DNA of 58,582 nucleotides from the IMG/VR virus record IMGVR_UViG_3300032828_000001, positions 1 through 58,582 of that record; one strand, 5' to 3'. The DNA is from a virus (taxonomy: Duplodnaviria > Caudoviricetes). Made by a program: the position numbers and the translations under genes. Of the stretch, positions 100 through 47,369 are shown one piece after another; within the stretch, counting starts at the first letter, position 1; every line of letters begins with the position of its first letter. The notes beneath the pieces were generated by a model. The model was not told the DNA's origin and did no database searches. It worked only from the letters and a program-made list of their open reading frames with translations.

Positions 100-210
100 G
101 GCCTTGCCGATCGCGATCGACGTTGCGTTCGTCCCACCGATCGTGAGCGCGCCCGCCGCCGCCGTGTCGTGATTCGGCGAGTAGAAATAGTTCACCGCCG
201 CGAGCGTGTT
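84..210. repeat. 127-nt direct repeat identical to contig end 58456-58582 (circular assembly overlap)
   Basis: Exact match by inspection; reading frame of 56633..58567 continues into 211-480. Confidence 0.95.
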
Positions 211-480
211 CGCGTGCAGCGTTCCCGCGTTGTCGAGCCAGGCGTATTCGGCACCGCCAATCTGGAACGAGATCTTCGTTCCTTCGGTCTCGACCACTAG
301 GAAAGTGTTCGTTCCGTCATACGTGATCCCGGTCGTCGTCGTCGGCGCGGTGAGTGACGTGGTGGTCTTCTGCGCGTAGAAGCCGCCCCCGACGAGCACC
401 TCCGGCGTCTGGTAGTTCGTCGGCTGCGCGTACTCGTAGGTCGCGTTGTGAACGAGCGGAAAAACCGGAACGAGCGCCAC
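211..480 (-). CDS. N-terminal part of long tail fibre (continues across circular junction to 56633; about 739 aa total)
   Basis: GTG at 480 gives MALVPVFPLVHNATYEYAQ...AAVNYFYSPNHD, in frame with ORF 56633..58567. Confidence 0.85.
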
Positions 481-496
481 GGCTTCGAGCCCCGCC

Positions 497-2242: not shown

Positions 2243-2245
2243 GGC

Positions 2246-2656
2246 CTACCCCCCCGGCCGCGGCGCGGGCCGCTTGTGAAGGACGCCGGTCTCGTCGTCG
2301 AACGAATATTCCCTCAGGTCCACGCCGAGGTCGGTTCCGATCTTGGCGATGAGATCCTGGTAGGTCTTCTCGGCCGCCTTCTGCTCCGCCTGCAAGGCTT
2401 TGATCTTGTCGTTCGCCTCGCGCGCCTGCGCGTTCTCCTGCATCCACTGCTGAAAAAGCGCGTTCAAAGCCCCGCTCGCGACGACGAGCTCCATCCGCGC
2501 CGCGCGCTCCTTTTCGATGGCGCGCGTCAAGCGCAAGAGGTCGAGCTCGTTTATCCGGAGGAGCTCGAGCGGGGGCGGCGGCTCAAGGGTTCCGTTCCGC
2601 GACTCGAACCCCGCGTCATGTAGCGTATCGTGTAAGGGCGTCAGATGCTTTTCCAT
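2246..2656 (-). CDS. Coiled-coil hypothetical protein (possible fibre chaperone)
   Basis: ATG at 2656 (MEKHL); heptad-like segment; tight gene packing. Confidence 0.6.
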   Translation of the reverse strand: MEKHLTPLHDTLHDAGFESRNGTLEPPPPLELLRINELDLLRLTRAIEKERAARMELVVASGALNALFQQWMQENAQAREANDKIKALQAEQKAAEKTYQDLIAKIGTDLGVDLREYSFDDETGVLHKRPAPRPGG

Positions 2657-2667
2657 GGTGCGTGCTC

Positions 2668-3258
2668 CTAACCGGGTTCGGCGCGGACACATGAGAGCTG
2701 CATGGATGGCAAGAGGAGCAGCGTCGCGTTATCGGTCGCGAACCCGATCGGTTGGATGTAGACCGGCACCCCCGGTGCGAGTAGGGCCGGCGGGCCCGAG
2801 CACGGCCGCCCGTTCGTCCCTACGAAGACCATTGCACCCTGCGTGAGTGCGTAGATGCCGGACACCACGCCGCCGAACTGCACCATGGCGCTTGTCGTGG
2901 TGGGTTTCTGCACGGCGCATCCGACGCACGGGAGGTGCGTGATATCGGTCGCGTTTGCCTGCACCGCCTGCCCGCCGACGACCGCGACGAGGTCGCCGAC
3001 GTTTAAGCTGGTAGCGCACGCGAGGGTGACGATCGGCGCGGTGGTGATGATGCCGCCGCTGTCGAGCGGCGCATCGGCCGCGATCTCGTCCGAAATCGCC
3101 TTCGCGATGGCGTAGCAGAGCGATTGCACCGAGGCGAGCCCGCTTCCACTGAGCGGAGAAATGAGCCCGTTACGCGAAGTGTCGTTCGTCCAGTCGCCGA
3201 AGATCCGACCGGAGAAACCCGACGTGCAGTCTGTCGCGCCTGGCGAGGGAAGCGGCAT
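2668..3258 (-). CDS. Putative virion structural protein (cement/DUF2190-like C-terminus)
   Basis: LNVGDLVAVVGG...CVGCAV...VFVGTNG pattern, similar to C-terminus of 497..2242. Confidence 0.55.
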   Translation of the reverse strand: MPLPSPGATDCTSGFSGRIFGDWTNDTSRNGLISPLSGSGLASVQSLCYAIAKAISDEIAADAPLDSGGIITTAPIVTLACATSLNVGDLVAVVGGQAVQANATDITHLPCVGCAVQKPTTTSAMVQFGGVVSGIYALTQGAMVFVGTNGRPCSGPPALLAPGVPVYIQPIGFATDNATLLLLPSMQLSCVRAEPG

Positions 3259-3259
3259 G

Positions 3260-3937
3260 TTACGGCACCTTCACGTTTTGTGACCCGGCACCGACGGCGA
3301 TGGTATCGGTGGTGAGCGGCTGCATGGCGGGGGATACCGTCACCGAGGCGGGCGAGATCGCGAACGGCCCCGCCGTGCCGACGATCTTGTGAAAGTGCCC
3401 GGCGGTGACGCTACCCTCCTTCGCGACCGGGGTCGAGCCGCCGTTGAAGATGGCGTCCTCGGTTGTGATCTTGATCTGCATGCCCTCATCCGCACCAACC
3501 GTCATCCCGTCCGAGGCTTGCCCCTGCCACGCGTGCGCAAAATCTCGGAGGCCCGGTATCGCAATGGCGTCGGACATTGCGTGCTGGCGCGGGTCGATGG
3601 GGTCAACCTCGCCGCCGCTTGCGAGCCAGACGTCGAGTGAACGGTCGGCGAAGACGAGCAAGACGGTATCCCCGGCCGCGACCGGGAACGTGATCCGCAT
3701 CCCGCCCGCGCCGGGCCAGACGATGGGTACGTTCGTGACCACCGGGAACGAGATCGGTGTCAGGGTTCCGTCGCCGAGGTCGACGTTGTCCTTCGTGAGC
3801 GGCTGCGCGTCGATGAGCCCCTGGGTGAGGTCGACGCGTTCGACGCGCGCCGGGAGCGCGACGTGGAGATCCGCGAGCGCCTCCTGATTGGCGCGGCGGA
3901 TTACGGATGCCAGGGTGGGAACGAGCGGCTCGGCCAC
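3260..3937 (-). CDS. Baseplate central spike (Gp138/gpV-like)
   Basis: LHVALPARVE, NVPIVWP, PVAAGDTVLLVFADRSLDVW, HAMSDAIAIPG; His-x-His near C-terminus. Confidence 0.85.
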   Translation of the reverse strand: MAEPLVPTLASVIRRANQEALADLHVALPARVERVDLTQGLIDAQPLTKDNVDLGDGTLTPISFPVVTNVPIVWPGAGGMRITFPVAAGDTVLLVFADRSLDVWLASGGEVDPIDPRQHAMSDAIAIPGLRDFAHAWQGQASDGMTVGADEGMQIKITTEDAIFNGGSTPVAKEGSVTAGHFHKIVGTAGPFAISPASVTVSPAMQPLTTDTIAVGAGSQNVKVP

Positions 3938-3968
3938 CCATCCTACCTATCGCGTCCCGCCCGGGTGG

Positions 3969-4211
3969 CTACAGGCCCCGGGACCTCTTGAAGGCCGCGA
4001 ACCACGCCTCGCGCTCGGCATCGCGCTTGGGGTCCGGTTCGTACTCGAGCGGCTCCCCGCAGTCGAAAACAAAGAGGCCGGGCAGGGTCACCTCGTGTTC
4101 GTCCTTCTCATACCCGAGCGCGAGGCCGAGCGGGTGGAGGATCTCGCGGTTGATCTTGTAAATGAGCCCCGCCTCATGGAGTAGCTTTGCCCCGTTCGGC
4201 ACCCGTTGCAT
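3969..4211 (-). CDS. Small conserved phage protein (INREILHPLGLAL), moron within tail operon
   Basis: ATG 4211 preceded by GCGATAGG motif; 80 aa. Confidence 0.65.
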   Translation of the reverse strand: MQRVPNGAKLLHEAGLIYKINREILHPLGLALGYEKDEHEVTLPGLFVFDCGEPLEYEPDPKRDAEREAWFAAFKRSRGL

Positions 4212-4233
4212 TCCCGCTCCTATCGCGCACGCA

Positions 4234-5091
4234 TCACCACGGCAGCATGTCCACTTCCGAGTACCAGTCCCCGCCGTCGAGCTGCCCGGAATGGACCACG
4301 CGCTCGCAGCGATAGTTCCCGGAGACCGAAACCGATTGCAGGATGATGGCGCGGCCGGGGCGGATCGTCGGGTCAAGCAGGCAGCGCACCCGGAGGTAGC
4401 TCGGCTTACCCTCCTTTTGGGGTTTCCCGTGGTCGGGCGAGCCGATCATTCCCGTTGCGGCAGAGATGACGCGGGCGCCCTCTTTCAGGACCATCCCCGC
4501 CGCCATGAGTTGCAGCGCGCCGTCTTGGATCGACCAATCGATCTGGGCCGCCTTGGTCACGCGGTCGAGCTCCCGAACCGTGCGGCCGTGTGCGGCGTAG
4601 CCTTGCCGGTAGGTGGAGATGGCCGGCGTGATCGCTTCGCGGCGAAGCTGGTTCACGGCGTTAGTGGCCGAGAGCCCGAGATCGGCCGCGAGGACCTCGA
4701 GGACCGTCTCGAGCCGCGTGCCCGCCTTCCACGAGTGGGCGCTGTGACAAGACTGGTAATTGTACTCGCCGTCACCGCCGCATATCCGCGTCACCCAGTC
4801 GGCGCCGTCCTTCGTGTGGTCGATCGTGCGCGCGGTGCCCATCCATACGAGCTTCGTGTCGCCCGTATACCCGGCGTAAAGTACCACGACCGACTTCGGG
4901 GCGTTCGGGTGCTGCGTCACGTCGACGGCCCCGATGAGGTTCCGCGACGCGTCCGAGAGATTGTACGCCTCGATCTCCGTCTTGTTCGGTTCCGAGTCGA
5001 GCCCCTTCGTCACGTGGAACCGAAAGTGCAGCCCCTTGAAAGCGGTGCCGCCGATCTGCACCCACCCGTCGCGTAGCCATTGCCGGCTCAT
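4234..5091 (-). CDS. Baseplate hub protein
   Basis: IEAYNLS, LYAGY, WSIQDGALQ, TGMIGSP, CLLDPTIRPG motifs. Confidence 0.85.
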   Translation of the reverse strand: MSRQWLRDGWVQIGGTAFKGLHFRFHVTKGLDSEPNKTEIEAYNLSDASRNLIGAVDVTQHPNAPKSVVVLYAGYTGDTKLVWMGTARTIDHTKDGADWVTRICGGDGEYNYQSCHSAHSWKAGTRLETVLEVLAADLGLSATNAVNQLRREAITPAISTYRQGYAAHGRTVRELDRVTKAAQIDWSIQDGALQLMAAGMVLKEGARVISAATGMIGSPDHGKPQKEGKPSYLRVRCLLDPTIRPGRAIILQSVSVSGNYRCERVVHSGQLDGGDWYSEVDMLPW

Positions 5092-5414
5092 GGCCCGGTC
5101 GATTCCACATAGGTGAGGAGCACTCGGCCGCCGAGGTCATCGTACCCGGCGTCGAGGTTTTGCCCCGACGTGTCGACGGCGAAGATGAACCCGGGCGGCA
5201 AGGCGGGATCGACGCCGCGTCCGAGCAGGTTCGCGCCGAGCACCACCTTGCGCCCGGCGACGAGCATGTTTTCGCTGCCGTCGTAGCACGATAGGAACCA
5301 ATACCCGACGCGGAAATTGAAGTAGAGCTCGATGCGGTACCAGGCGTTCTCCAGCTGCACCTGGAAATCGTAGGACGCCGAGCTGTTATCGACCGGAAGT
5401 ATGAGCGTCGCCAT
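5088..5414 (-). CDS. Baseplate plug protein (Pam3 gp18/DUF6983-like)
   Basis: FQVQL, FNFR..WFL, DDLG.RV.L.Y motifs; position between Dit-like gene and hub. Confidence 0.7.
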   Translation of the reverse strand: MATLILPVDNSSASYDFQVQLENAWYRIELYFNFRVGYWFLSCYDGSENMLVAGRKVVLGANLLGRGVDPALPPGFIFAVDTSGQNLDAGYDDLGGRVLLTYVESTGP

Positions 5415-5417
5415 GGC

Positions 5418-6125
5418 TCATCCCGCGGACACGGGCGCGGCGGGCTCAACCGGCGGTACCGGTTTCGGGGCGAAGATGCCTTTGACGAGCTCGGTGGCCC
5501 AGTTTCTAATCGAGACGACAATCGAACGCTTTGGGTCGGGCGGCGTGGCGGTGATCGTCCCTTGCAGCCCCTTGCTCTTTTTCCCGGTCTTGCCGTTCTT
5601 CACGTTGGGTATGGCGGCGGTCTGGCTATCGACGATCGTCACCTGCTTTAGCGCGGCGGTGAACCGCACCGCGTCACCCGTGTCGGCCGCGCGCGGGAAT
5701 TCGAGCGATTCGATCACCATGTCCGGGTACACATCCGTCCAGACGTTGGTCTGCCCGGCGGGCGCGATCCCAGTCGTGACGTCGATCGTCGTGCGGCTCG
5801 AGAACATCAGCCGCAATTGGTCGATGGCGGTTCGCGATCGGGTCGGATCGGGCTCCGTCCCCACCCGCGCATCGATCGTGATGAGCGGGTCGTCGAAGTA
5901 GTCCTGCGCGTAACTGCTATCGCCCGCCGGCAGCGGCGTCTCGGTCACGACGCCCTCGAGGCGCACCGCGAGGGGGCGCAGGAGCACGTTGTCGGAAACG
6001 ACCCCGCCCGATTCGATCGGGTGCTCGGTCACCTGCGCGGTGTTGGTTTCCCCGAACGTCACCGCGGCATCGAGCACCAGGGTGACGACGGCCGCACCGT
6101 TAGTCCAAGCGATCTGCGTGCTCAT
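5418..6125 (-). CDS. Dit-like baseplate/tube initiator protein
   Basis: LDAAV..E...VTEHPIESG..VSDN motif; follows tape measure. Confidence 0.8.
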   Translation of the reverse strand: MSTQIAWTNGAAVVTLVLDAAVTFGETNTAQVTEHPIESGGVVSDNVLLRPLAVRLEGVVTETPLPAGDSSYAQDYFDDPLITIDARVGTEPDPTRSRTAIDQLRLMFSSRTTIDVTTGIAPAGQTNVWTDVYPDMVIESLEFPRAADTGDAVRFTAALKQVTIVDSQTAAIPNVKNGKTGKKSKGLQGTITATPPDPKRSIVVSIRNWATELVKGIFAPKPVPPVEPAAPVSAG

Positions 6126-7825
6126 TTGACGACCGCCGCGAATGCCGCCCCTGTATCCTCGCCCTGTAGCCGCCGGATCTGGTCCAGGAAGTTGTCCGGG
6201 TCCGGGGTCACGATGTTACCGAACGTCATGTTGATGGTCCGGTTGTCACTTGTCGTCGTCGCGACGCTGGGGGTGGGAACCACCGTGGTCGGCGGGGCGA
6301 GAAACCCGGTCAAGTGCTGGATCGCGGGCGCGGCCGGCAGACCTTCGGGGGCGCTAGCAGCAACCGCCCCCGGCGCGACTGCGGGTGCGCCGCCCTTCCC
6401 AAACTCGCGCTGCAAGGCGGCGTAGTCTCCGGCCCGCGCCAGCTCCGTGAAGCGGGCGTTTTTGGCCAGTTCCCACTGCCGCTCCATCTGCCCAGGTCCA
6501 CCCGCCCCGGCTGCCTCGAACGCCTTTCCCATGGCGCCTTGGTCGGCCTTTTGCTCGGCGAAAAACTTCTCGTGCTCGCCCGCAAGCAAGTGATCGAGCT
6601 GCTCCCGCACGTCCAAAAAGTCTACGATCGCCTTGGTCGCAACCTTGAGCCCCTTCACGAACGCGCTATCGGCAGCGTTGACCTTCAGTAGATTTTGGAA
6701 TGTGCCGAGCCAGTTTCCCAGCAGTGTCTCGCGATCGCCCGTGATCCACCCGTACAGTTCCTCCATTCCCAGCACGACGAGGGCGATCCCGGCAATCACG
6801 GCAAGGCCCCACAGGAACGTCGATGCGGCGGCCGTAACCTGCGCGGCGGTGATGGCGCGGAGCGTGGTAAGCCACGCCCCGGCCTTTGCCACGGCGCCCG
6901 CGATGGCGAGGCCGAGTTGCGAGACGAGTACCAGCGAAAGCGCGGTCGCCGCGGCTTCCCATAGCCACGTCTGGCTGACGATCGCGCCCACCGCTTTCGT
7001 GAGCGGTTCCAGCGTGGCCTTCGCCCGCTTCCATGCCGCGATGAGCCGATCCACCCATTCGGTGACCTTCGTGCGCACGAGGTCCCGGTTTTTCTCGATC
7101 CACTCGGCGAGCGCCTTCTTTTGTTCGGCCACAACGTGGAGCAGCGGCACGCCGATCGCACGCTGCAACACCTCGAGTGACAGCGTCAGATCCATCGACG
7201 CGCGCTTGTAGTCCCGCGCGGCCTTGACGTCCTCATCCGCGAAGACCATCCCCGTCTTGTGTGCCTCTTCGCGGAGTGCTTTGAGTGCGGTTGACCCCTT
7301 GTTCAGCATCGGGAGCATTTCCGTCCCGAGTGCTCGGCCGAAGATCTTTGTTGCCAGGGCGATTTTTTCGTTACCCTCAGGCATCGCTGCGAACCGGTCG
7401 GCGAGCGCTACCAGCACCTCGTCGGCCGACGAGGCCCCGCGCTTGATGTGAACCCCCATTGCCGAAAACGCCTTGGCCGTGTCGCCGCTCCCTTTACCCG
7501 CGGCGTACATGGTGAGGTTGAGGTGCTTCAACCCCTGCTCGAACGCTTCCGCCGAAGTGCCCGAATGATGGGCGGCGAAGGCGAGCTCCTCGTAAGCCTC
7601 GCGCGTCACGCCGGTGCGCTGCGCCGCCTTGTTCGCCTCGACCGCGGCATTCGCCGTCTCGTCGACGATGTGCGCGAGCCCCTTCGCCGCTGCACCCGCC
7701 GCGAATGCGACGCCGAGTCCTATAAGAGCGTGCTTGAGGCCGCCGAGCAGCTCATCGGCGTGCTTGAACCCGGTCTCGTCGGTCTTGAGGCCGAGGGTGG
7801 CGAAGAGCTCGCGAACGACTGCCAT
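6122..7825 (-). CDS. Tape measure protein (short, 567 aa)
   Basis: VVRELFATLG start, Ala-rich helices, IFGR motif, TM-like segments; follows chaperone. Confidence 0.85.
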   Translation of the reverse strand: MAVVRELFATLGLKTDETGFKHADELLGGLKHALIGLGVAFAAGAAAKGLAHIVDETANAAVEANKAAQRTGVTREAYEELAFAAHHSGTSAEAFEQGLKHLNLTMYAAGKGSGDTAKAFSAMGVHIKRGASSADEVLVALADRFAAMPEGNEKIALATKIFGRALGTEMLPMLNKGSTALKALREEAHKTGMVFADEDVKAARDYKRASMDLTLSLEVLQRAIGVPLLHVVAEQKKALAEWIEKNRDLVRTKVTEWVDRLIAAWKRAKATLEPLTKAVGAIVSQTWLWEAAATALSLVLVSQLGLAIAGAVAKAGAWLTTLRAITAAQVTAAASTFLWGLAVIAGIALVVLGMEELYGWITGDRETLLGNWLGTFQNLLKVNAADSAFVKGLKVATKAIVDFLDVREQLDHLLAGEHEKFFAEQKADQGAMGKAFEAAGAGGPGQMERQWELAKNARFTELARAGDYAALQREFGKGGAPAVAPGAVAASAPEGLPAAPAIQHLTGFLAPPTTVVPTPSVATTTSDNRTINMTFGNIVTPDPDNFLDQIRRLQGEDTGAAFAAVVK

Positions 7826-7827
7826 TT

Positions 7828-8060
7828 TTATCTAGCCTTGGCCCTTTCGAGTGCTTCCGCCTGCGCCTCGGCGACCGCGTCGAGGACGTCGTTCGCGTCG
7901 AACACGTCCGCGAGTGTCCAGGCCCGGTCGATCTCCTCTAGTGTTGCGCACCGGGCCTCGACGAGGCGCCAGACGGGCCATTCGGGGGCGAGATGGTCGA
8001 GGTCGCGGAGTGCGACGGCGCCCCCGCCCGCGCGCCGATTGCGGCGAGGGCGAACCCAAA
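7828..8060 (-). CDS. Tail chaperone extension (gpT-like, -1 frame)
   Basis: PVWRLVEARCATLEEIDRAWTLADVFDANDVLD in -1 frame overlapping chaperone end; no own RBS/start evident. Confidence 0.6.
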
Positions 8061-9175: not shown

Positions 9176-10513
9176 CTAGACCGTGACGGTCCCCTGGATC
9201 TGCACCTTGTGTATGGCCCCCGCGAGGAGCGCCGTGAAACCGACGCCGGGCATGAACCGGTTCGCGACGTCGCTTGGCGCTTGCGATGCGACGAGCGGCA
9301 CCGTGACTTTGGATGACCCTTTGACGAGCCCGCCCACGTCCTCACCGCGCTGTAGCGAGGTCAAGACCGCGGCCTGTACCAGCGTCGCACCCGCGTCGGT
9401 GTACGGGATCTTCCCGCTCGCGTTTGCGAGCAGCAGGAACACCGCGCCCTGAATGTCCTGCGTCTGCCAGTCAAGGAAGCGGATGGTGTCGATAAACTCG
9501 GCGTCGCAGACCTTCCCCTGCATGGTGATGTTCCGCCCCGCCACGGTGTAGTAATACCCGCAGTTTTTCGACTGCATGTTGACGATCTGCGTCCCGGTGT
9601 ACGTCCGCGCCGGTACGCCCGCGATGCTTTTCAGCGCCCATGTCTCGCTTCCCGGTGTGAGCGGCAGGCAGGCGCCCAGCATGCCGGCGTCGAGAAACGC
9701 CCCGTTTGACGGATCGTACACAACCGCGGTCCGCTTGTAGCCGAGCTGCATCGCCTGATACGCAGCGGATACCGGACCGCTCGCGATGGTCGCCTCGTAG
9801 GCCGCGGTCGTGTTGATAGCCTGCGTTTCCTGCGTTTGCGCGAGGTACTGCTTCCCGTTCGCCTCCACCCAGTGTGCGGTCGCGAGGAGCTCGGCGGTGC
9901 TATTCCACGGGTTCACGACCGAGTACCAATCGGGCGATTCGAGCGCGATGGCATCGAGGTCGGTCGCGATGCCCGGATCGGCGTGGTCCTGCACGATCGA
10001 CAGATAGTTCACGTTGCCAACCTGCACCGATTGCCAGGCGCCGGGGGCGGCGGTGAGGGTGAGGGCGTTCGTGCCGGCCGCGGTGAGGCCGTGCGTGCCC
10101 GTTGCGGCATTCACAACGGCAATGAGGCCCGCCACGATCTGGGCCGCGGTCGGGCTCGTGTCGACCGTGTCCGTGAATGTGTAATCGATTCCGCCGATGG
10201 TGAGCACGTACGGGACGTTTTCGAGCGTGACGAGCGGTGTTACCGTCCAGTGCTGCGTGGGCGGCAGCGCGCAGCGGCCAACGCCCACCTGGGTGGGGGC
10301 CGGATCCTGGCCGAAAATTGCCGCCGCCGCCGCGTACTCGGGCGTCCCGGCCGGGAAATCGCTTGCCAGCGCGGTATCGCTTGCGTAGTACCGCACCCGC
10401 TCCGGGTATGACTTGGAATACCCGCCGAGAATGAGCGGCGTGCCGAAGCCCGCCAAGGTGAGACCGCCCGTCACGGCCGTGATCTGGACCTGCACGATAT
10501 CCGCGAGCGGCAT
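9176..10513 (-). CDS. Tail sheath protein (DUF3383-like)
   Basis: GFGTPLI, PGSETWALK, EFIDTIRFLDW, KIPYTDAG, LAGAIHKV. Confidence 0.92.
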   Translation of the reverse strand: MPLADIVQVQITAVTGGLTLAGFGTPLILGGYSKSYPERVRYYASDTALASDFPAGTPEYAAAAAIFGQDPAPTQVGVGRCALPPTQHWTVTPLVTLENVPYVLTIGGIDYTFTDTVDTSPTAAQIVAGLIAVVNAATGTHGLTAAGTNALTLTAAPGAWQSVQVGNVNYLSIVQDHADPGIATDLDAIALESPDWYSVVNPWNSTAELLATAHWVEANGKQYLAQTQETQAINTTAAYEATIASGPVSAAYQAMQLGYKRTAVVYDPSNGAFLDAGMLGACLPLTPGSETWALKSIAGVPARTYTGTQIVNMQSKNCGYYYTVAGRNITMQGKVCDAEFIDTIRFLDWQTQDIQGAVFLLLANASGKIPYTDAGATLVQAAVLTSLQRGEDVGGLVKGSSKVTVPLVASQAPSDVANRFMPGVGFTALLAGAIHKVQIQGTVTV

Positions 10514-22143: not shown

Positions 22144-23112
22144 TTAGTCCGCGCCCTCGTCCCCGCTTGCGTCCTCGTCGGGCGTGGCCCCCTCCCCTGT
22201 GAGCTGCTCGATCACGTCGTCGAGCACCGGCTCTGCCTGACACCGGCAGTTGATAGGCTTGCCCGGGGTAACGTCCTCTTCGCCGTCCACCTCGGGCGGG
22301 TCGTCCCATGAGAACGTCTCGCCCTCGAGATCGGCGTGTGATGCGCGCACCCGGTTGTCGTTCGAGGTCCGCCACACGAACCGCGACACGCCGAGCTCGG
22401 TCTGCCGCTCCTCGTTCACTTGGCCGGTGAGCTTCCCAACTTGGTCGCGCGCTATGAGTGTGGCCCGGCTTTCCGCTACGCCGTACCGCTCGGTCATATC
22501 GTCGGCGAGCTCTTCCCAACGGACGCCCTCGCTCATGCCCTGCGTGACAATCTTTTCGATCTCCGTGAAGTAGCTTTCCGGCACGCTCTTCACAAGTGCC
22601 ACGTTGGCGCGCGCGAACGCCTCGATCCGGGGCACGAGCCACGGTTCGGCATTCACGACATCGACACCGAGTAACGAGCGCATCTGCCTATTCCACTGCT
22701 CTTTCTGAAAGTCGGCCGTGGCGCGGCCGATCCGCGCCGCGGTTTCGGATAGGTCGGCGTTTGTGAACTCGGCGAAGAGCTGGCGCGACAAATCGTCGAA
22801 GATCTCGTTTACCTCGTCGCCCTCGTCATCGTCCCACGCGTCGGTGCGGTGGTCGGGTGGCTGCGCGTCATGATGCGCCGCAAGCGCGTCGGCGTGGTGG
22901 TTCACGATGGATCGGAGTCGCCCGGCCTTGGCTTGGAAGAGCGCCCGCGCCGCCTTCACGACCCGCATGATCTGGCCGAGGTAGCTGAGCGCAACCCCGG
23001 TAGGGTGGAGCTGGCGCGGCATGGGCCCGCGGCGGCGATGGGGCCTGCCTACCGCGCGCATGAAGGCGCGCCGCGCGCGGATGTCCGCCTGTATACGGGC
23101 GGTACTTCTCAC
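22144..23112 (-). CDS. Head morphogenesis protein (SPP1 gp7 / Mu F)
   Basis: RATLIARDQ, WRTSNDNRVRASH, PGKPINCRC; start uncertain (GTG 23112 or ATG 23022). Confidence 0.9.
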   Translation of the reverse strand: MRSTARIQADIRARRAFMRAVGRPHRRRGPMPRQLHPTGVALSYLGQIMRVVKAARALFQAKAGRLRSIVNHHADALAAHHDAQPPDHRTDAWDDDEGDEVNEIFDDLSRQLFAEFTNADLSETAARIGRATADFQKEQWNRQMRSLLGVDVVNAEPWLVPRIEAFARANVALVKSVPESYFTEIEKIVTQGMSEGVRWEELADDMTERYGVAESRATLIARDQVGKLTGQVNEERQTELGVSRFVWRTSNDNRVRASHADLEGETFSWDDPPEVDGEEDVTPGKPINCRCQAEPVLDDVIEQLTGEGATPDEDASGDEGAD

Positions 23113-36377: not shown

Positions 36378-36593
36378 ATGATGCTCTACGACATATTTTA
36401 CCCATCGTGCAAGGGGTTCGACCGCGATGTGCCGATCGTCGGCCCCCCGTTGCACGACCTCGATTACGCCGTCAACACGAACTGGGACCGCCACCGTCTC
36501 TATGCCGATTACGCGGGCGGGAAACTCGTGTGGTGCGCCCCGGAAGCCCTCTCGCTCCGAGGTCAGCGTCGGCATGGGGTCGGCACCCCATGA
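36378..36593 (+). CDS. Small early protein
   Basis: AAAGGA RBS; ATGA overlap with next gene. Confidence 0.65.
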   Translation: MMLYDIFYPSCKGFDRDVPIVGPPLHDLDYAVNTNWDRHRLYADYAGGKLVWCAPEALSLRGQRRHGVGTP

Positions 36594-37633
36594 CACACAT
36601 ACCCACGGTGTACCTCACGCGAATGAAGGATATGATCCCAACGTGCTGGAAGGAGGTGGATCGCTTCCGGGCCATGCGCGGGAAAGGTCTCCCGAACTGG
36701 CCACCGTACTGTTTTCTGCCGCTGGCGGGCGCATACGCGATCCTCAGTCGGGGCGACTCCCTGTCGCCCGAAGAATGCGGGGCGATAGCGGCGTTCGGCG
36801 CGCTCGCTGCTTGGCGCGCGACGCAGGGGATCTATGAGATTCACCCGGCCATGCGCGCCGCCGTCGAGACAACGCCGATCGGGGCCATACCGGTCGAGGT
36901 GCTCCACCGCATGCCGGAATGGTGCATCTACATCCGTACTCCCGGTAACAGTTACCTGGGCGAAAAGGTTGAAGGGTTCTTCGCCTTTCTCGAGTACGAT
37001 GCGAACACCGGAAGTGAAGAGCTGCGCATCGTCATCGACTGCCCGCCCTGTCTGCTATCTGTCCTTTCGATCCATCTTGACCAGGGCGGACTGGAACTAG
37101 GTGTCGCAGCCGCCTATGCCGAGTGCCGGAAGCAGGCGCACAAGGCGGGCATGGATTTCGAGCGCGCGATCAGGATCATGGGCGTGGGCCCGAGCGAGTT
37201 GGCGGCGCTCCTCACACCCTACGTTAACCTCGTGCTTTACGTATCCGCCGAGAATGCCGAGATCTGCGATGCGAGTAACACCCGGACCCGCCCGGAGAAG
37301 CCGCGGCCAACGCGCACGAAAAAAGGGCTGCGCCTCTTTCCGCCCGATCACCCGACTACGTGGGACGTGGGAATGCGGTTAGGAGCTGCGCTGCAAGCCG
37401 CCGAGGTCGACGACGACAGCGAGCCGCGAGGCGGCACTCACGCGGGCCCGCGCCCGCATATCCGTCGCGCGCACTGGCACCATTATTGGTCCGGGCCGAA
37501 AAGCGCGCAGGAGATAAGTCTACGTTGGCTCGCCCCCATCGCCGTCAATGTCGACGACACCCACCCCCTCGTCCCCACGGTGCGGCCGATACCCGGTGAC
37601 ATCGAGGCACCGACACGGAAGGATCCCCCATGA
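36590..37633 (+). CDS. AcrVA2/FinQ-family protein
   Basis: AWRATQGIY, MPEWCIYI, NLVLYVSAEN.EI, WDVG.RLG, RPHIRRAHWHHYWSG, RWL.PI.VN match AcrVA2 motifs as recalled. Confidence 0.85.
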   Translation: MTHIPTVYLTRMKDMIPTCWKEVDRFRAMRGKGLPNWPPYCFLPLAGAYAILSRGDSLSPEECGAIAAFGALAAWRATQGIYEIHPAMRAAVETTPIGAIPVEVLHRMPEWCIYIRTPGNSYLGEKVEGFFAFLEYDANTGSEELRIVIDCPPCLLSVLSIHLDQGGLELGVAAAYAECRKQAHKAGMDFERAIRIMGVGPSELAALLTPYVNLVLYVSAENAEICDASNTRTRPEKPRPTRTKKGLRLFPPDHPTTWDVGMRLGAALQAAEVDDDSEPRGGTHAGPRPHIRRAHWHHYWSGPKSAQEISLRWLAPIAVNVDDTHPLVPTVRPIPGDIEAPTRKDPP

Positions 37634-37860
37634 CCACCTGCATATTCCTGGGCTGTGGCCTAGCCGCGCACGGCCACGGCCTCTGCCGCACGCACCTGTC
37701 CCAGCTCGCGCGCGGGCAGCCGCTCACCGCGCGCAAACCCAAGGCCGACGCCGCGCGGGTGGTCCTGTCACTGCGGGTATCGCGCGCGGCCAAGGAGGCC
37801 GCGCTCGACGACCCCGAACGGGCGCGCGCCGCGCTCGAGAAATTGGCGAGGGGCGCATGA
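37630..37860 (+). CDS. CCCH zinc finger plus RHH-like C-terminus (candidate Aca-type regulator)
   Basis: CIFLGC..GLCRTH then VVLSLRVS beta-strand and helices; ATGA coupled. Confidence 0.65.
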   Translation: MTTCIFLGCGLAAHGHGLCRTHLSQLARGQPLTARKPKADAARVVLSLRVSRAAKEAALDDPERARAALEKLARGA

Positions 37861-38402
37861 TTCGGCAAACACGAGTGCTCGCCTGCGGATGTACCGTCGC
37901 GCGCGAGCATCATACGCGCGGCGCGGTGAAGGCGGCGCGTGCGCGGGGAGTAACCGTGCGCGTCGCAACGTGGGCGCAGCTAGAGGAGGAGCATGCCGGC
38001 ACCTGCCGGAAGCTCCGCGCGATCTACGCTGCACGGGAGCGCGCCTCCGCGCGCGAGTCCCGTCAGCGCGAGGCCGATATCCGGCGCCGTATCGCGTCCG
38101 GAGAGCTCTGCCCGCTGTGTCAGGAGCCGGTCACGACCAGCGTGGCATGCATCACCGGGCAACACAAGTGCGTGTGGTCGCGCGCCGACGCGGCCCGCGA
38201 GCTAGCACTGCCCGCCACTTCACGCACGGTGCGATGGCTCGCCGATGGCGAGATCTCGCTTAGGGAAGCGCATCGCATCGCGGACGTCGTGTCGGATCGG
38301 CACGATGCGACCGATTATGATCGGCTGCTCCGCGCCGGGTACGATCGCGACGACGCACGCGAGATCATCCGCGAGCAGCTACCGCCGCCCAAAAGAGGGT
38401 AA
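37857..38402 (+). CDS. Hypothetical protein with Cys motifs
   Basis: LACGC, CPLC, RHDATDYDRLL..GYDRD.AR; ATGA coupled. Confidence 0.6.
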   Translation: MIRQTRVLACGCTVAREHHTRGAVKAARARGVTVRVATWAQLEEEHAGTCRKLRAIYAARERASARESRQREADIRRRIASGELCPLCQEPVTTSVACITGQHKCVWSRADAARELALPATSRTVRWLADGEISLREAHRIADVVSDRHDATDYDRLLRAGYDRDDAREIIREQLPPPKRG

Positions 38403-38458: not shown

Positions 38459-39127
38459 ATGGCACTCTTGGCGGACGAAGTGCGCCGGATGTACCGCGAG
38501 GCCGACGATGTGCTCGAGAAGCAGATCGTCCGCGACCAGCACGTGTCGTGCCGGAAGGGGTGCGCGCACTGTTGCCAGCTCCTCGCGCTCACCACCCTCC
38601 CCGAGGCGTATCTCCTCGCGCAGTGGGTGGCCCGGTCCCCCGATAGCGAGGTCTGGGTGTCGCGCCTGCTCGCCGTCGCGCGCGAGGTGGCGACCTGCAC
38701 CGACCGCGGCGACTGGTTCGATCGGCGCATCCCGTGCCTTTTTCTCGCGGCTGATAACACTTGTCGTGTGTATGACGATCGGCCCGGCTGTTGCCGCTGG
38801 CTCGCCGTCCGGACCCCACCCGAGCTGTGCGCCCCCGAGGCCCGGCGCGAAACGGTGGAGCGCTACGATACCCGCGGGCTCGAGCGCTACGCGATAGAGT
38901 GCGCGATCCGGTTCCACGACGAGCGCCCCGAGGCCGGCGCCGTCGGCGTGGGCCTCATTCCACTAGCTGTGTTATGGGCCCTGCATATCGGCCTGCGCGG
39001 CAAGGCGCGGCGCCGCCTCGAAAAGAAGATGTTTGGGCTCCCGACGCTCGCCGAATGGACCGCGCGCTATCGCGACGAGCCCGTGAATCGGACCCCGGCC
39101 TTCCGGGTCCTGAACGATGGCGCGTAG
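38459..39127 (+). CDS. YkgJ/UPF0153 (CxxCxxCC) cysteine-cluster protein
   Basis: SCRKGCAHCC, CLFL, CRVYDDRPGCCR. Confidence 0.85.
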   Translation: MALLADEVRRMYREADDVLEKQIVRDQHVSCRKGCAHCCQLLALTTLPEAYLLAQWVARSPDSEVWVSRLLAVAREVATCTDRGDWFDRRIPCLFLAADNTCRVYDDRPGCCRWLAVRTPPELCAPEARRETVERYDTRGLERYAIECAIRFHDERPEAGAVGVGLIPLAVLWALHIGLRGKARRRLEKKMFGLPTLAEWTARYRDEPVNRTPAFRVLNDGA

Positions 39128-39960: not shown

Positions 39961-41490
39961 CTAGCCGCTCTGTGCGCCCTTGGGCGGAAGAAAGGATACG
40001 TTCGAGCTCGTGGGCTCCACGAGCCGGTAGACGTATTCCGTCCAGCGCTCGAGCGCGTCCCGCCGCTGGTCAAAATAGTCATCGTGGCTGTAGTACCCCT
40101 CCATCCCGCCCTCGACGTGACCGATACACCGCTCGGCGAAAAAGGGGAGAACGCCGCATTTCTTCGGGGCGAGCGTACGGAACGTGTGGCGAAGATCGTG
40201 CACCGTGACGTGCCCACCGGGGAGATCGAGCAAGGGCGGCACGCGGATCCTCTGCCCTTTCTGCCGGCGTTCGCCGGCCTGCATACGGCTGAGCGCCCGC
40301 ATAAGTGCCTTGTCGTTCAGCCGCCCCGATTCGGAGTCGCTGCTTGCCATCACAAACCGTGAATCCCCCGCCAGGCTTTTCAGCTCACGAAACATCGACA
40401 GCACTTGCGGTACGAGCGGTATCCTGCGGTCCTCCGCGTGGGCGATCTGTTTGGGCTGTAGCTTCTGATTTTCGATGGGGACGATCCAGATGGCCCCCTC
40501 GAGATCCAGCTCCTTCCATTCGGCCCTGAGTAATTCCCCCGTCCGATCCGGCACCAACAATAGGATGCGCAGGCCGAGCTGCACCGAACGCGACATCCCT
40601 TCAAGCGGAACGAGCGCGCGTCCACGCTTCATCTGCCGGTAATGGCCATAGCAGAGCCCTTTTGCTCTCGCGGCGCGCCCGCATGGGCTGAATGCGCACG
40701 ATGCCATTCCGGTCTCGATGACCTCATCACCCGTTCGCTTTTCTACCGCGCGCCAGAAAAGCGGGATCTCATGCTCCGAAAGGTAACGCCTGCGCCGGTT
40801 CTTCACGCAACCGAGGGCGTCCTTATCGAGTGCATCCATGGGGTTCACGGAGAGATCCTCCCCGTAGCTCCGGAGCCACCGAAAAAACTGGCGCAGGTGG
40901 CTAAAGACCATTCCGGCCTGCGTCGGGGAACCGCGCCGCACCACGCCAAGCACGATGTCTCGGCAGTCCTGCCGAGCTTGCGCCGTGTTCGCGGCCCAGG
41001 TGGCCAGGGGCTTCTTTCCGAGCGCCGGGAGAATGTCCGCATCGAGCGTCCGCCGAACCTCATGCGGAACCGACCGCTTCGGGACAATCCGCAACCGATA
41101 GAATTCTTCGGCGAGTTCGCCGATGGTCTTTCCGCCGCCGCCCATCGTGCGCGACTTGGAGCGGCGGCCCATCTTGGTCTCGAACTCGATGAGCTTCCCG
41201 GTGCTATGGGCTGCCTTGGCGCGTTCGAGAAGGGCGCGCGCGTCGTTCACCGTCAGTTGTTCATCCGTCTTGCCGCTCGGATGCCCCCATGGGCCCAGGA
41301 CCAATGATCGGTTTTCGCGGCTCCCATCTGCGTCCACCACCTGATAGTACCAGCGAAACATCTTGCTGCCGGTCGGGTACACGCGCAGGCAAAGGCCGCG
41401 GTCAAACCGATCGTACCGCCCGTCCGGCAAGTCTCGTATCCAAGCGTCCGTGAATCCGAACGGCGGCGTGCTAGTGTATCGGGGATCCAT
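39961..41490 (-). CDS. int: P4-type tyrosine integrase with arm-binding domain and inserted zinc finger
   Basis: AGGAGG before ATG 41490; GLCLRV..TGSK.F arm domain; R(TGE), HDLRHT, CIGH, YYSHDDY catalytic motifs. Confidence 0.95.
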   Translation of the reverse strand: MDPRYTSTPPFGFTDAWIRDLPDGRYDRFDRGLCLRVYPTGSKMFRWYYQVVDADGSRENRSLVLGPWGHPSGKTDEQLTVNDARALLERAKAAHSTGKLIEFETKMGRRSKSRTMGGGGKTIGELAEEFYRLRIVPKRSVPHEVRRTLDADILPALGKKPLATWAANTAQARQDCRDIVLGVVRRGSPTQAGMVFSHLRQFFRWLRSYGEDLSVNPMDALDKDALGCVKNRRRRYLSEHEIPLFWRAVEKRTGDEVIETGMASCAFSPCGRAARAKGLCYGHYRQMKRGRALVPLEGMSRSVQLGLRILLLVPDRTGELLRAEWKELDLEGAIWIVPIENQKLQPKQIAHAEDRRIPLVPQVLSMFRELKSLAGDSRFVMASSDSESGRLNDKALMRALSRMQAGERRQKGQRIRVPPLLDLPGGHVTVHDLRHTFRTLAPKKCGVLPFFAERCIGHVEGGMEGYYSHDDYFDQRRDALERWTEYVYRLVEPTSSNVSFLPPKGAQSG

Positions 41491-41859
41491 CGAACCTCCT
41501 TGACAGGTTCCGGTGGTGAGGGCTCCGCGGCGGCTGCGAACCGCTTTGGGGCCCGTTTTTTTGTGACAGGAGCGGGGTACGCCCCCACTGTTCGGACTAC
41601 GCCATGCGCCCGGGTCCGAGCAGCGCCGAAGTGCCTCCTGGGGTGAACACTGCGGCCCCTCTTGATGTGACAGGCAGAAAACCACATCGCCAGGCCCATG
41701 TGAAGCATCATTTTTGTTCACCCCGGGGTGAACACTGGGGAAACCTTCACAAATAGCGTTGATCCGCGTCAAACCGCGACACGGAAAAACGGTCCCAAGT
41801 ATAAGCGGTTACGCGCTCTGGCGCGTTTTGTCGCGGTACGCGTTGTGCGCGCAATATTC

Positions 41860-41904
<45 letters not shown>

Positions 41905-41907
41905 CAA

Positions 41908-41958
41908 AAGGCCGCGATGTTGTTCGGGAAACTCCGACACATCGCGGCCTTCTTTTTT
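41908..41958 (+). terminator. Replacement terminator for the reconstituted tRNA
   Basis: 13-bp stem AAGGCCGCGATGT/ACATCGCGGCCTT then CTTTTTT. Confidence 0.85.
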
Positions 41959-42045
41959 ACGCAGAGAGCGCGGGGGGCGGTTTGGGGTGAACAACGGGGT
42001 GAACATTGGGGGCGATCACGACAGAGCGCGACCAACCGCGACGCA

Positions 42046-42579
42046 CTACGGGTGTTCGTCGTTCCCCCCGGGGCGAACAAGCTCATTTGCCGCGAGCCAT
42101 GCCCTCACCTCGGCCGCCACCCAGATGCGCTTGCGGCTACGTCGGACGTAGTGCGGACGGGGGAAGCCGCGATCGAGAATCCATCGCTCGACCGAGCGCC
42201 GGCTGTAGCCGAGAAGGCTCTCGACCTGTCGCACGTCGAGTCGCTCCGCCCCGTCGAGATCCCGCAGGCGACGCTTCCGGATGCGCCGCGGCTTCTGCCC
42301 GTCGCCTTCCGTCGCACCATCCCCGCGCGAAGGGAGCACGGTCGTCCTCCGGGGCTTGTGTTCTTGGTCGCCCGGGACCGCCTTAGCGACAGCAGGCGGC
42401 GGCGGGGCGGGCGCGGGGCGATCCGCGAGGGCAAGCGGCGGCGGCGGGGCATGGCACCGCAGGCAGCCGCCCATCGGCGAGACATAGCCGGCGTCGGGGC
42501 ACGTGCACCCCGGCGGTTGCGGCATGCTCCATCCCCCGGGCGGCGTGATTCTGTTCTTTGCGGCGTGGTCCATGTTCAC
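42046..42579 (-). CDS. xis: AlpA-like excisionase/recombination directionality factor with Pro/Cys-rich N-extension
   Basis: LDVRQVESLLGYSRRSVERWI..GFPRP...W.AAEVRAWL. Confidence 0.8.
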   Translation of the reverse strand: MNMDHAAKNRITPPGGWSMPQPPGCTCPDAGYVSPMGGCLRCHAPPPPLALADRPAPAPPPPAVAKAVPGDQEHKPRRTTVLPSRGDGATEGDGQKPRRIRKRRLRDLDGAERLDVRQVESLLGYSRRSVERWILDRGFPRPHYVRRSRKRIWVAAEVRAWLAANELVRPGGNDEHP

Positions 42580-43157
42580 ACCTCCTCGCCGGGTTCGCGC
42601 CCGGGTTCATGCGTTTGTAGGGGTGCGTGTTCGCGCTCGTCGGGCACCGGCACCGGTACCGGCGTGCCGCGCGCGCGCGTGCACAGCGCGGCCGTGCACG
42701 CGCCGTCACGGGTGTGGTAGGTCGCGTGGTCGCAGGCGCAGCGTGCCCCGCAGTGACAGCGCGTCCCGGCCGGCCGGCGGCGGCTACCGAGGATCGCGAG
42801 GTTGGGCAGCCGGCAGAGGACGCACATGCGCGACCCCGGCAGCCGGTACTCGGGCCCGTGTTCGCAGGTCGCGGGTGGCGCGGGGGGCGCGGGTTCGCCT
42901 TCTACGGGCTCGGGCGCCGGCCCGTCGGGCCGCGTGAGCGGCGGCGGTGGGGGCGCGCCGTGCGTGGCGCATGCGCCGTCACCGCGCGTCCCGCCCGGGT
43001 GCGGATCGGGGCAGCCGCACCACAGCTCGGGCAGATCGGCACCCCATCCGTGCGCCTTGCAGCGCTCATCGGTCCCCCACCGTTTCCCGGCCGGGCACCC
43101 GCACCACAAGGCGGGCCCATCCGCGGCGCCCGCGGGCGCGCGTGTTCCGTCATCCAT
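42576..43157 (-). CDS. Cys/Pro-rich hypothetical protein
   Basis: Two LWCGCP...C..HG repeats plus other Cys clusters. Confidence 0.55.
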   Translation of the reverse strand: MDDGTRAPAGAADGPALWCGCPAGKRWGTDERCKAHGWGADLPELWCGCPDPHPGGTRGDGACATHGAPPPPPLTRPDGPAPEPVEGEPAPPAPPATCEHGPEYRLPGSRMCVLCRLPNLAILGSRRRPAGTRCHCGARCACDHATYHTRDGACTAALCTRARGTPVPVPVPDEREHAPLQTHEPGREPGEEV

Positions 43158-46449: not shown

Positions 46450-46556
46450 GACGGGCCAATCCGGCACCGGGCGCCTATCCGCCTGGCACCTCACCCGCGC
46501 CCCGCTATCTACCCCCGGACATGCACTACACAAGCGGGGCCCCTATCGTAGGGGGC

Positions 46557-47369
46557 ATGGCCAAGGCGATGGGGTCGGCGACGATATGGCTCGGCCGGGT
46601 CGCGATCCCGGTCCGGGTCTATCCGGCGATCCTCGACCCCCCGCGGGTCGCGTTTCATTACCTGCACTGGGCGTGCAATGGGCGCGTTCGGCAAGAGTAC
46701 CATTGCCCGCGCTGCGAGGAGAGGACGGCGCCGGCCGCGCTCCCACGCGATGCCCTGCACGCGGGCGTCGAGGTCGGCAAAGACCAATACGTCACGTTCA
46801 GTAAAGAGGAGCGGCAAGCGCTCACCGAGGAGCCGGATCCGGCGATCGAGATAGGCGAGTGCGTGCCGGCCGAGTCGATCGATCCCATCCATTGGGCGCG
46901 CCCGCACTACCTCGGGCCGGAACCGGGGCACGGGGACGGCTATGCACTGTTAGTCGACGCGCTCCATTTGTCCGGCCGCGTCGGCCTCGCGCACTGGCGC
47001 ACCCGCGGCGCGGATCTGTTCGTCGCGGTGCGCGAATCCGGGCGCCGGCTCGTCGTGCAGGAGCTCTTGCGCGCGGAAGAGGTGCGGCCCATTGCCGAGA
47101 TAGAGGCACCGCCCGCGCCTGCGGCCGGGCTCGCGAAACTCGGCCTCGCCCTCGTCACCCGGTACGCGGGCACGTTCGATCCGGCCGCATATCCCGACCG
47201 TGTATATGCACGCACCGTCGAAGCGGTCGAGGCGAAGAGGGCGGGGAAAGAGATCATCGCCGTTCCGGCGCCGGGGCGCGAGGCGCCGCTCCCGCTCGCG
47301 GCGGCGCTCAAAGCAAGCATCGAGGCGGGGAAGCCGCGGGGGGCGAAGACCAAGCGGGGGCGCACGTGA
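46557..47369 (+). CDS. ku: Ku DNA end-binding protein (no LigD in genome)
   Basis: I.LGRVAIPVRVYPA, FHYLH..C.GRV, G.EVGKDQYV, IDPIHW..PHYLGP, YALL..AL, FDP..YPD. Confidence 0.92.
   Translation: MAKAMGSATIWLGRVAIPVRVYPAILDPPRVAFHYLHWACNGRVRQEYHCPRCEERTAPAALPRDALHAGVEVGKDQYVTFSKEERQALTEEPDPAIEIGECVPAESIDPIHWARPHYLGPEPGHGDGYALLVDALHLSGRVGLAHWRTRGADLFVAVRESGRRLVVQELLRAEEVRPIAEIEAPPAPAAGLAKLGLALVTRYAGTFDPAAYPDRVYARTVEAVEAKRAGKEIIAVPAPGREAPLPLAAALKASIEAGKPRGAKTKRGRT

Follow-up and report, generated by a model that had tools for sequence, protein, structure and literature searches.

A rare zinc-finger-like insert conserved in the integrase of a temperate phage of myxobacteria

The stretch of DNA analysed here (the window) is the virus record IMGVR_UViG_3300032828_000001, a single contig of 58,582 bp, which it covers from end to end. 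Its integrase gene encodes a tyrosine integrase of the lambda/P4 type (P0001) which carries, inside its catalytic domain, an inserted segment of about 44 residues built around a putative zinc finger. This insertion is real and rare, and it is kept by purifying selection. To judge from the sequences, a tyrosine integrase of a known type carrying a zinc-finger insert is new, and the finger may well provide the enzyme with an additional contact to DNA. The features concerned are:

39961..41490, minus strand: heterobivalent (lambda/P4-type) tyrosine integrase P0001, 509 residues (identified by Pfam, catalytic residues, AlphaFold2 and Foldseek)
40597..40737, minus strand: inserted segment, residues 252-298, i.e. 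an acidic/glycine linker, the finger, a helix and a VPLEG linker (from alignments)
40612..40698, minus strand: finger core C265-x4-C270-x9-C280-x2-H283 with the basic helix HYRQMKRGRAL (motif scan and PHROG 19978)

The integrase and its insert

The open frame of the integrase (39961..41772, minus strand) has a translation that includes GMASCAFSPCGRAARAKGLCYGHYRQMKRGRALVPLEG, and the start was taken at 41490. Both expected Pfam domains are recognised, Arm-DNA-bind_3 (PF13356) with 31.7 bits (above 27) and Phage_integrase (PF00589) with 29.2 bits (above 27.1), and the AlphaFold2 (AF2) model of the full protein has a mean predicted local distance difference test (pLDDT) score of 88.5. The best Foldseek matches of this model are the lambda Int structures 1z1b, 1z1g and 5j0n (1z1b_A with an E of 1.4e-8), while 1z19_A (TM 0.76 by target) and 3ju0, the arm-type binding domain of the HAI7 integrase, are also among the matches. 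R316, H431, R434, H458 and Y467 are invariant across 11 aligned sequences. In a larger alignment of 85 sequences (P0001 and 84 near-full-length homologues, taken from roughly the best hundred rows of the word-index and HMMER searches), R316, R434, H458 and Y467 are invariant, and K343 and H431 nearly so. The nearest phage integrases in GenBank are just 22-27% identical.

An earlier note on this DNA had placed a CCCH finger between the LS..EI..FW helix and the Arg box, at 40601..40710, and it was found there: the string CAFSPCGRAARAKGLCYGHYRQMKRGRAL (residues 265-293, 40612..40698) has an intact C-x4-C-x9-C-x2-H motif and a net charge of +7 over the 29 residues of the finger core. The insert as a whole comes after the first helix of the catalytic domain and before the helix bearing Arg-I. 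That this loop is normally short, as the note had stated, is borne out by the 85 aligned sequences, in which the distance between W246 and R316 has a median of 27 residues, compared to 71 in P0001 and one other integrase (P0002) only, and 24-50 in the rest. Several other homologues bear unrelated, cysteine-free inserts at the same site, giving loops of up to 50 residues, so that the site is a loop of variable length into which insertions are tolerated. A six-frame motif scan of the window gave three matches, i.e. the integrase, a small open reading frame (ORF) of 76 residues that is treated below (ORF76), and 22323..22388, the last of which lies in a frame of non-coding composition and is read as chance.

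P0002 is encoded by a sister phage, another myxophage (G001, IMGVR_UViG_3300037483_001430, 56,080 bp, CheckV 100%), and is 62-63% identical to P0001. Among the 11 aligned proteins from the word-index search these two have the insert and the other nine do not; the close homologues P0003 (57-58% identical) and P0004 (46%) are finger-less. An exhaustive HMMER search with the integrase gave 11,045 matches at E ≤ 0.001, and among the best 150, which were examined, 148 are integrase-like, of which P0002 alone shows the finger motif. The remaining two (P0038 and P0111) are not integrases, being finger arrays that match through the finger only. Searches of three collections for related loci with P0001, A2 and P0002 found none, those with A4 and with the finger protein of a further phage, G005, returned known records only, and word-index searches with ORF76 and with the finger region retrieved just the query itself. 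Likewise, no finger integrase was found at 23 tRNA-Pro loci, one of which holds a 33% identical integrase without a finger.

Between P0001 and P0002, 21 of the 27 codons of the finger core encode identical residues (78%) with a ratio of nonsynonymous to synonymous substitution rates (dN/dS) of 0.17, compared to 0.26 for the whole integrase (63% identity), 0.30 for the catalytic domain (60%) and 0.70 for the linker preceding the finger (residues 251-261, 45%), a contrast that is indicative only, because dS is near 1 and the core comprises only 27 codons. P0002 retains all four ligands, and so does each of 14 aligned fingers, in which the first ligand spacer is 4 residues long, or 8 to 9 in two free proteins. 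The earlier note had also pointed to an altered Arg box, and this box indeed reads VPDR instead of TGxR, but a link between this change and the insert was rejected: the finger-less P0003 has VPER, so that the change is a trait of the clade and is not tied to the insert.

The surroundings of the integrase gene complete a recombination module:

41860..41904 (about), plus strand: attP core, consisting of the 3' part of tRNA-Pro(CGG) (anticodon loop to CCA), with a terminator hairpin after it (sequence and alignment of host tRNA genes)
41640..42079, no strand assigned: six GGGGTGAACA repeats on both sides of the core, five exact and one with one mismatch, candidate arm-type sites
42046..42579, minus strand: AlpA/excisionase-like helix-turn-helix (HTH) protein of 177 residues, candidate directionality factor (phrog_66)

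Over its span from anticodon loop to CCA the attP core has the very sequence of host tRNA-Pro(CGG) genes (Cystobacter and Archangium aligned), and ARAGORN found no whole tRNA. All five exact GGGGTGAACA copies of the window fall within 41640..42079, and allowing up to one mismatch there are 10 matches compared to 2.8 expected. The excisionase-like protein matches phrog_66 ('excisionase and transcriptional regulator') with an E of 2.6e-8 and Pfam Phage_AlpA with 18.8 bits, under the cut-off of 21, and is 63% identical over 59 residues to a gene product of G001, which has a tRNA-Pro(GGG)-like fragment in place of tRNA-Pro(CGG). Given the catalytic residues, the attP core, the arm repeats and the excisionase-like neighbour, the integrase gives the impression of a functional enzyme that has a candidate directionality factor of its own. 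The integrase and its surroundings resemble the lambda Int/P4-type systems (1z1b, 1z1g, 5j0n) in its arm-binding, core-binding and catalytic domains, its full set of catalytic residues, and an attP with a tRNA 3' fragment, flanking arm-type repeats and an excisionase-like neighbour, whereas it differs in the 44-residue finger module before the Arg-I helix and in the VPDR Arg box.

Two side observations concern this region. The terminator hairpins that follow the tRNA fragments of the window (41905-41960) and of G001 (L001, about 9560-9640) are almost identical and are unlike the host sequence that follows the tRNA gene, while the two phages otherwise share few genes in the compared parts. Furthermore, a cysteine-rich ORF of 193 residues (window 42576-43157, minus strand; G+C content at third codon positions (GC3) 0.84; two WCGCP...C..HG repeats; no PHROG match), of which the status as a gene is uncertain, overlaps with its 3' end the start of the excisionase-like gene.

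The window itself is a temperate, myovirus-like phage of myxobacteria. Its minus strand holds a myovirus-like structural module by PHROG matches (large terminase, portal, head protease, tail sheath, tape measure and baseplate wedge). A stretch of 42 nucleotides from the tRNA-Pro 3' part beside the integrase gene has an exact match in 23 stretches of the genome collection, 20 of which are labelled myxobacterial (Archangium, Cystobacter, Anaeromyxobacteraceae, Myxococcaceae, Myxococcota), the remainder being two 'uncultured delta proteobacterium' entries and one 'Rickettsiales' metagenome-assembled genome. Because 20 of the 23 matches carry myxobacterial names, the host is very probably a myxobacterium. 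Just 6 of 92 window ORFs have a tblastn match in the compared parts of G001 (1-8000 and 31929-56080), in a comparison from which the composition filter had removed the integrase ORF. A Ku-like gene for a DNA-end-binding protein (window 46521-47369, plus strand), also recognised among the PHROG matches, is common to both phages (49% identity). The GC content of the window is ~0.62-0.73 and is lowest in the 40-42 kb region (0.62), and GC3 is 0.76 in the integrase gene, an AcrVA2-like gene and a DUF2293 gene, compared to 0.81-0.87 in their neighbours, which hints at a later acquisition of these genes.

A large family of fingers

The finger of the integrase has relatives in many proteins. Its residues 260-303 match positions 3-46 (of 111) of PHROG 19978, an HNH endonuclease family, with an E of 7e-8, and residues 1-44 of ORF76 match positions 5-48 of the same profile with an E of 3.8e-7. 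By these scores the shared match of both fingers is beyond chance. Both fingers match PHROGs 5351 and 1271 more weakly, and all three HNH families are matched through their N-terminal parts. Neither the integrase nor ORF76 contains an HNH domain, as no Pfam match to one was found and the PHROG matches end at profile position 48. The suggestion of the earlier note that a mobile finger of this kind is also found at the N-termini of phage HNH proteins has thus held up, both through these profiles and through phage G005, in which a finger forms the N-terminus of an HNH endonuclease encoded beside terminase genes. Passages of Xu and Gupta (2013; PMC3592412) describe CxxxxC and CxxH zinc ribbons at the N-terminus of site-specific phage HNH nickases, as well as free zinc-ribbon proteins adjoining the nuclease, which according to these authors could be a transcription regulator or a mini-specificity subunit. 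The fingers of the window share the CxxxxC and CxxH knuckles and the N-terminal profile similarity with these ribbons, as far as those passages describe them, but both the integrase and ORF76 are without HNH, and the integrase carries the module inside a recombinase domain.

A second link leads to the Pfam family Zf_WRKY19 (PF24906, gathering cut-off 27 bits), which has equal ligand spacing. Relatives above this cut-off are P0038 (40.9 bits), L054 (30.1 bits; its small protein is 46% identical to ORF76) and L057 (28.6 bits), while others remain below it with 15-21 bits. However, the two fingers of the window match no Pfam model at E ≤ 0.1 and no NCBIfam model at E ≤ 1, and Zf_WRKY19 is named for a plant protein; searches by Pfam name or accession found no paper on bacterial or phage members.

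In the host group the finger is close to ubiquitous. A profile made from four phage-finger rows matches at E ≤ 1e-4 in 159 of 201 sampled Myxococcales genomes (one of which, G167, is unpublished and was counted in this tally only). Among the 30 best loci, 19 encode a small, Lys/Ala-rich basic protein with two tandem fingers, which is present in most Myxococcales genomes sampled and matches the same HNH PHROG regions (E 1.4e-10):

L064-L078, L080-L083 and L035-L037 (Myxococcales genomes): loci of the two-finger, Lys/Ala-rich protein

This protein may be VegA of Myxococcus, a histone-like protein in which, according to the earlier note, similar fingers occur, although literature searches for vegA found no paper on it among the rows listed ('Vega' there apparently being a surname), and NCBIfam does not name the two-finger protein.

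Fused to other domains, the finger occurs at the C-terminus of an XRE-type HTH regulator, in proteins with RGRP-type basic tracts, and in a protein with three fingers followed by a ribbon-helix-helix (RHH) domain (L057, RHH_1). It also forms the C-terminus of a large serine recombinase of 620 residues (L084 10262-12124, minus strand, genome G051) with Resolvase, Recombinase and Zn_ribbon_recom domains. A finger-bearing large serine recombinase that is 83% identical to it, apparently split over two frames, was observed in another genome (L058). Large serine integrases with zinc modules (Zn_ribbon_recom) show that a site-specific recombinase can use a zinc-binding module to recognise DNA, and in the myxobacterial L084 enzyme such a protein bears a finger of the window type; their catalytic superfamily is nevertheless another one, and the canonical zinc ribbon is a different module. 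Every named domain found fused to the finger in this analysis handles DNA. Searches of the ESM Atlas gave leads only (EndoVII, LAGLIDADG and ROS/MucR partners, and a 593-residue Phage_integrase cluster of Actinomycetota with a TM of 0.41), and a second such search gave no usable match. Ten finger matches in open frames of 305-1065 residues were considered as further fusions and rejected, as the four that pass the composition and motif filter are the two-finger gene after stop-free, GC-rich sequence, and the other six gave nothing under this filter. As a separate observation, the metagenomic proteins P0038 (886 residues, with HNH_3 in mid-protein) and P0111 (534 residues) contain 13 and 8 tandem fingers, respectively, at a spacing of ~40 residues. 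The module belongs to a large family that includes the N-terminal 'zinc ribbon' of phage HNH proteins, the relatives passing the Zf_WRKY19 cut-off and the two-finger protein.

ORF76 and the AcrVA2-like operon

The second finger of the window is found in a gene run with an AcrVA2-like gene, 2.1 kb from the integrase gene and convergent with it:

36590..37633, plus strand: AcrVA2/FinQ-family gene, start uncertain (ORF open from 36332)
37630..37860, plus strand: ORF76, 76 residues, a free finger (ligands at residues 4-22) with a shortened RHH-like tail (PHROG 19978, E 3.8e-7; GC3 0.87)
37857..38402, plus strand: DUF2293 protein of 181 residues (Pfam DUF2293 33.3 bits, above 25)

That ORF76, which begins MTTCIFLGCGLAAHGHGLCRTH, follows an AcrVA2 gene was stated in the earlier note and is well supported: the preceding protein matches PDB 7ci1_A with an E of 2.6e-18 and phrog_6160 with an E of 2.2e-51 (over 16-322 of the protein), and its TGA overlaps the ATG of ORF76. 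In its C-terminal part a H-x-R-x-x-H string was seen by eye (i.e. not mapped residue by residue), with a spacing equal to that of H286, R288 and H291 as named in passages of a preprint. ATGA overlaps are found at both ends of ORF76, of which the second joins its stop to the start of the DUF2293 gene (37857-37860), so that by their arrangement the DUF2293 gene would be translationally coupled to ORF76 and ORF76 to the AcrVA2-like gene. A putative zinc- or iron-binding CxxCxxCC (YkgJ-type) protein (window 38459-39127, plus strand) is encoded in the same operon-like run.

ORF76 aligns over its full length with eight small proteins (alignment A8), one from G001 and seven from myxobacterial genomes. 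Its closest relative is that of L054 (46% identical over 71 residues, E 1.5e-13), and the relative in G001 (83 residues, 42% identical) is encoded near the end of the record, after an HNH-like gene and a gene of unknown function; among 50,697 phage records, none was matched by ORF76 in tblastn. Common to the family are the finger, a helix and a RG..L.P.R stretch, after which come a strand-like segment (V.L.[VL]R[VL]) and two helices. The tail of L057 matches RHH_1 with 24.6 bits (cut-off 20.5) and that of L059 reaches 19.1 bits, while ORF76 itself has no Pfam RHH match; the first helix (helix A) is ~8 residues shorter in ORF76, the G001 protein, L054 and L056 than in the RHH_1-positive relatives. 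A prediction of a two-copy ORF76 complex scored 0.22, compared to a mark of 0.42. The place directly after an anti-CRISPR-family gene is the one expected of an operon regulator, and small DNA-binding genes that follow anti-CRISPR genes are known under the concept of 'Aca'. ORF76 resembles such RHH regulators and 'Aca' genes in being directly after, and apparently coupled to, an AcrVA2-family gene and in a tail that aligns with RHH_1-positive relatives, but differs from them in its shorter helix A, in the missing Pfam RHH match, and in that its G001 orthologue is not beside an AcrVA2 gene. Most likely, as far as gene order and alignments can tell, ORF76 is a small DNA-binding regulator, combining a finger with an RHH-like part, that is co-translated with the AcrVA2-like gene.

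A link between ORF76 and the integrase is not demonstrable. The earlier note had reported a gapless match of 14 identities over 29 residues between their fingers, which is correct by hand count, and BLASTP aligned residues 1-50 of ORF76 with residues 262-309 of the integrase at 21 of 51 identities (E 2e-7, as a single comparison). However, the integrase finger is 50-57% identical over 27-31 residues to the two-finger proteins of the host, compared to 41% over 51 residues to ORF76, which does not support ORF76 as a special partner of the integrase finger. An origin of ORF76 from the integrase finger by duplication, or the reverse, was rejected as well, the host proteins being at least as similar to the integrase finger. 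Nor was support found for the proposed coupling of integration and excision to the anti-defence operon, given that G001 has a finger integrase and a free finger but no AcrVA2 match, and the extra directionality factor that was invoked seems unneeded with an AlpA/excisionase-like gene already beside attP.

Apart from this, the likeness of integrase residues 262-321 to L056, ORF76 and the 83-residue protein of G001 runs beyond the finger into the start of the Arg-I helix, the shared stretch past the finger being V.L.LR[VI], followed in L056 by P.R..E.L. Either chance or a remnant of the insertion's 3' junction could account for it.

Possible roles of the inserted finger

The integrase is an ordinary lambda/P4-type enzyme that would recombine at the 3' part of the tRNA-Pro gene. 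Into a surface loop of this enzyme, which follows the first catalytic-domain helix and leads to the Arg-I helix, a module of ~44 residues has been spliced. It comprises a C-x4-C-x9-C-x2-H finger, modelled as treble-clef-like, together with a very basic helix and two linkers that are flexible. The finger would bind zinc and, being tethered, would contact DNA, either next to the core site or in a different segment of the intasome, thereby raising affinity or specificity. Because its fusion partners handle DNA and its charge is strongly positive, a DNA-binding role can be put forward, and we regard it as probable, albeit with considerable reserve, that the finger is a selected accessory DNA-binding module that was placed in an insertion-tolerant loop and gives an added DNA contact.

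The structural part of this reading comes from models. Modelled alone (AF2 with a 14-row finger alignment), the 43-residue insert reaches a pLDDT of 82, with a hairpin-like N-terminal part and a helix (24-32) that starts at C23/H26, i.e. the third cysteine and the histidine. A search with VIA found A20-type fingers as the nearest folds (A20 ZF7, Z 4.0, root-mean-square deviation 1.4 Å over 31 residues), and all VIA Z scores for the finger model are below the level that the tool treats as meaningful; with this restriction, the model fits a treble-clef-like fold. The AlphaFold modelling proposed in the earlier note gave this model for the insert alone, whereas in the full-length model the insert (pLDDT 44-57) was not placed.

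Several points weigh against the DNA-contact reading. With a pLDDT of 44-57, AF2 cannot place the insert relative to DNA; Foldseek with the isolated finger model gave nothing at E ≤ 0.001, and neither finger of the window has a Pfam match; and the DNA-binding GATA fingers have a Z of 2.3-2.4 in VIA, compared to 4.0 for the ubiquitin-binding A20 type. In addition, the case for DNA binding is built on fusion partners and charge, the contrast in dN/dS is weak, and since the insert is restricted to two known integrases, it is dispensable for the integrase family.

The first alternative, which is close to the idea of the earlier note and which we consider rather unlikely, is that the finger is a module for protein docking or control. 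Free finger proteins, in the window ORF76, would serve as directionality or regulatory factors that act on the recombinase through this finger or from a neighbouring position on DNA. The two phages that have a finger integrase (2 of 2) also encode a protein with a free finger and an RHH-like part, although they otherwise share few genes (the 6 of 92 ORFs mentioned above, with the integrase ORF outside the 92 and only parts of G001 compared). Elsewhere, free finger genes adjoin recombinase genes in G005, at L054/L085 (upstream of a resolvase) and at L079 (next to a tyrosine integrase), and the finger ends the large serine recombinase of 620 residues and its 83% identical relative; the best structural neighbours, the A20 fingers, are protein-binding, if weakly similar. 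In G005, as was observed separately, the gene of a 123-residue finger protein (L052:4800-5171, plus strand) overlaps the start of a divergent tyrosine recombinase gene (5159-6331, plus strand), and the finger-bearing HNH endonuclease and the terminase genes follow this recombinase in a record that also holds the finger-less integrase P0004. The start of a recombinase gene is a position usually held by an excisionase gene.

On the other hand, free finger genes also occur with finger-less recombinases, in G005 (P0004 and the second recombinase) and L054 (the resolvase), from which it follows that a pairing of free and fused fingers is not required. The co-occurrence of fused and free fingers, which the earlier note had proposed to look for, is found in both finger-integrase phages. 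ORF76 is 2.1 kb from its integrase gene, in convergent orientation, and the G001 copy lies 12 kb away from that of P0002; an excisionase-like gene already flanks attP; and the two-finger proteins of the host are at least as close to the integrase finger as ORF76 is. A recombinase is found within ~3 kb in just 2 of 9 free-finger loci (tblastn with five queries), and as recombinases are common on mobile elements, an enrichment of free finger genes near them is not regarded as shown. Finger proteins may still take part in the control of recombination, the grounds being their genes beside recombinases in three other elements and the fusion to a large serine recombinase.

A bolder reading takes the finger as a shared handle for recombination control in myxobacterial mobile elements. 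Unrelated recombinases would have acquired it, within the protein in the case of a tyrosine integrase and as a C-terminal fusion in that of a large serine integrase, while others would have a free finger gene as neighbour. Proteins of the ORF76 type would be the cognate factors, setting direction or timing by reading the finger, or competing with it, on DNA, which in the window would tie excision to expression of the AcrVA2-like operon. We consider this unlikely.

Similarly unlikely is a passenger role, in which a common local module was inserted neutrally into a tolerant loop and has no part in recombination. Such a course would be in line with the loops of 24-50 residues in finger-less homologues, with the rarity of the insert (one of the 148 other representatives among the best 150 of 11,045, and absent from the next closest P0003 and P0004), and with the plentiful supply of donors, since the module has matches in 159 of 201 host-group genomes. 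It is less easily reconciled with the conservation of the ligands and the basic helix between integrases of 63% identity at a dS of ~1, or with the lower dN/dS of the finger (0.17) relative to the catalytic domain (0.30) next to a preceding linker that evolves freely (0.70).

Finally, it is improbable that the finger is a structural arm, stabilised by zinc, through which integrase subunits in the tetramer or synapse touch one another rather than DNA. In favour of it, the insert sits in the domain (the catalytic one) by which the subunits of lambda Int and Cre are linked in a cycle, contacts between proteins are often made by zinc modules, and the structural neighbours from VIA are weak, but the module is found in many proteins not known to form such tetramers, and its strong positive charge fits nucleic acid better.

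Literature searches for an integrase insert of this kind found no description, and in the main text of a large survey of tyrosine recombinases (PMC8138268), as far as it was available, the word 'zinc' is absent. The present result corrects the proposed link between the insert and the anti-CRISPR genes, and places the finger in an uncharacterised family that is nearly universal in Myxococcales and their phages and has repeatedly been joined to DNA-cutting or DNA-rearranging enzymes. In the usual description a tyrosine integrase has three fixed domains. A selected zinc finger within the catalytic domain would, if true, be a new way for an integrase to extend its DNA footprint or its control, which is relevant to efforts at engineering the sites that integrases choose.

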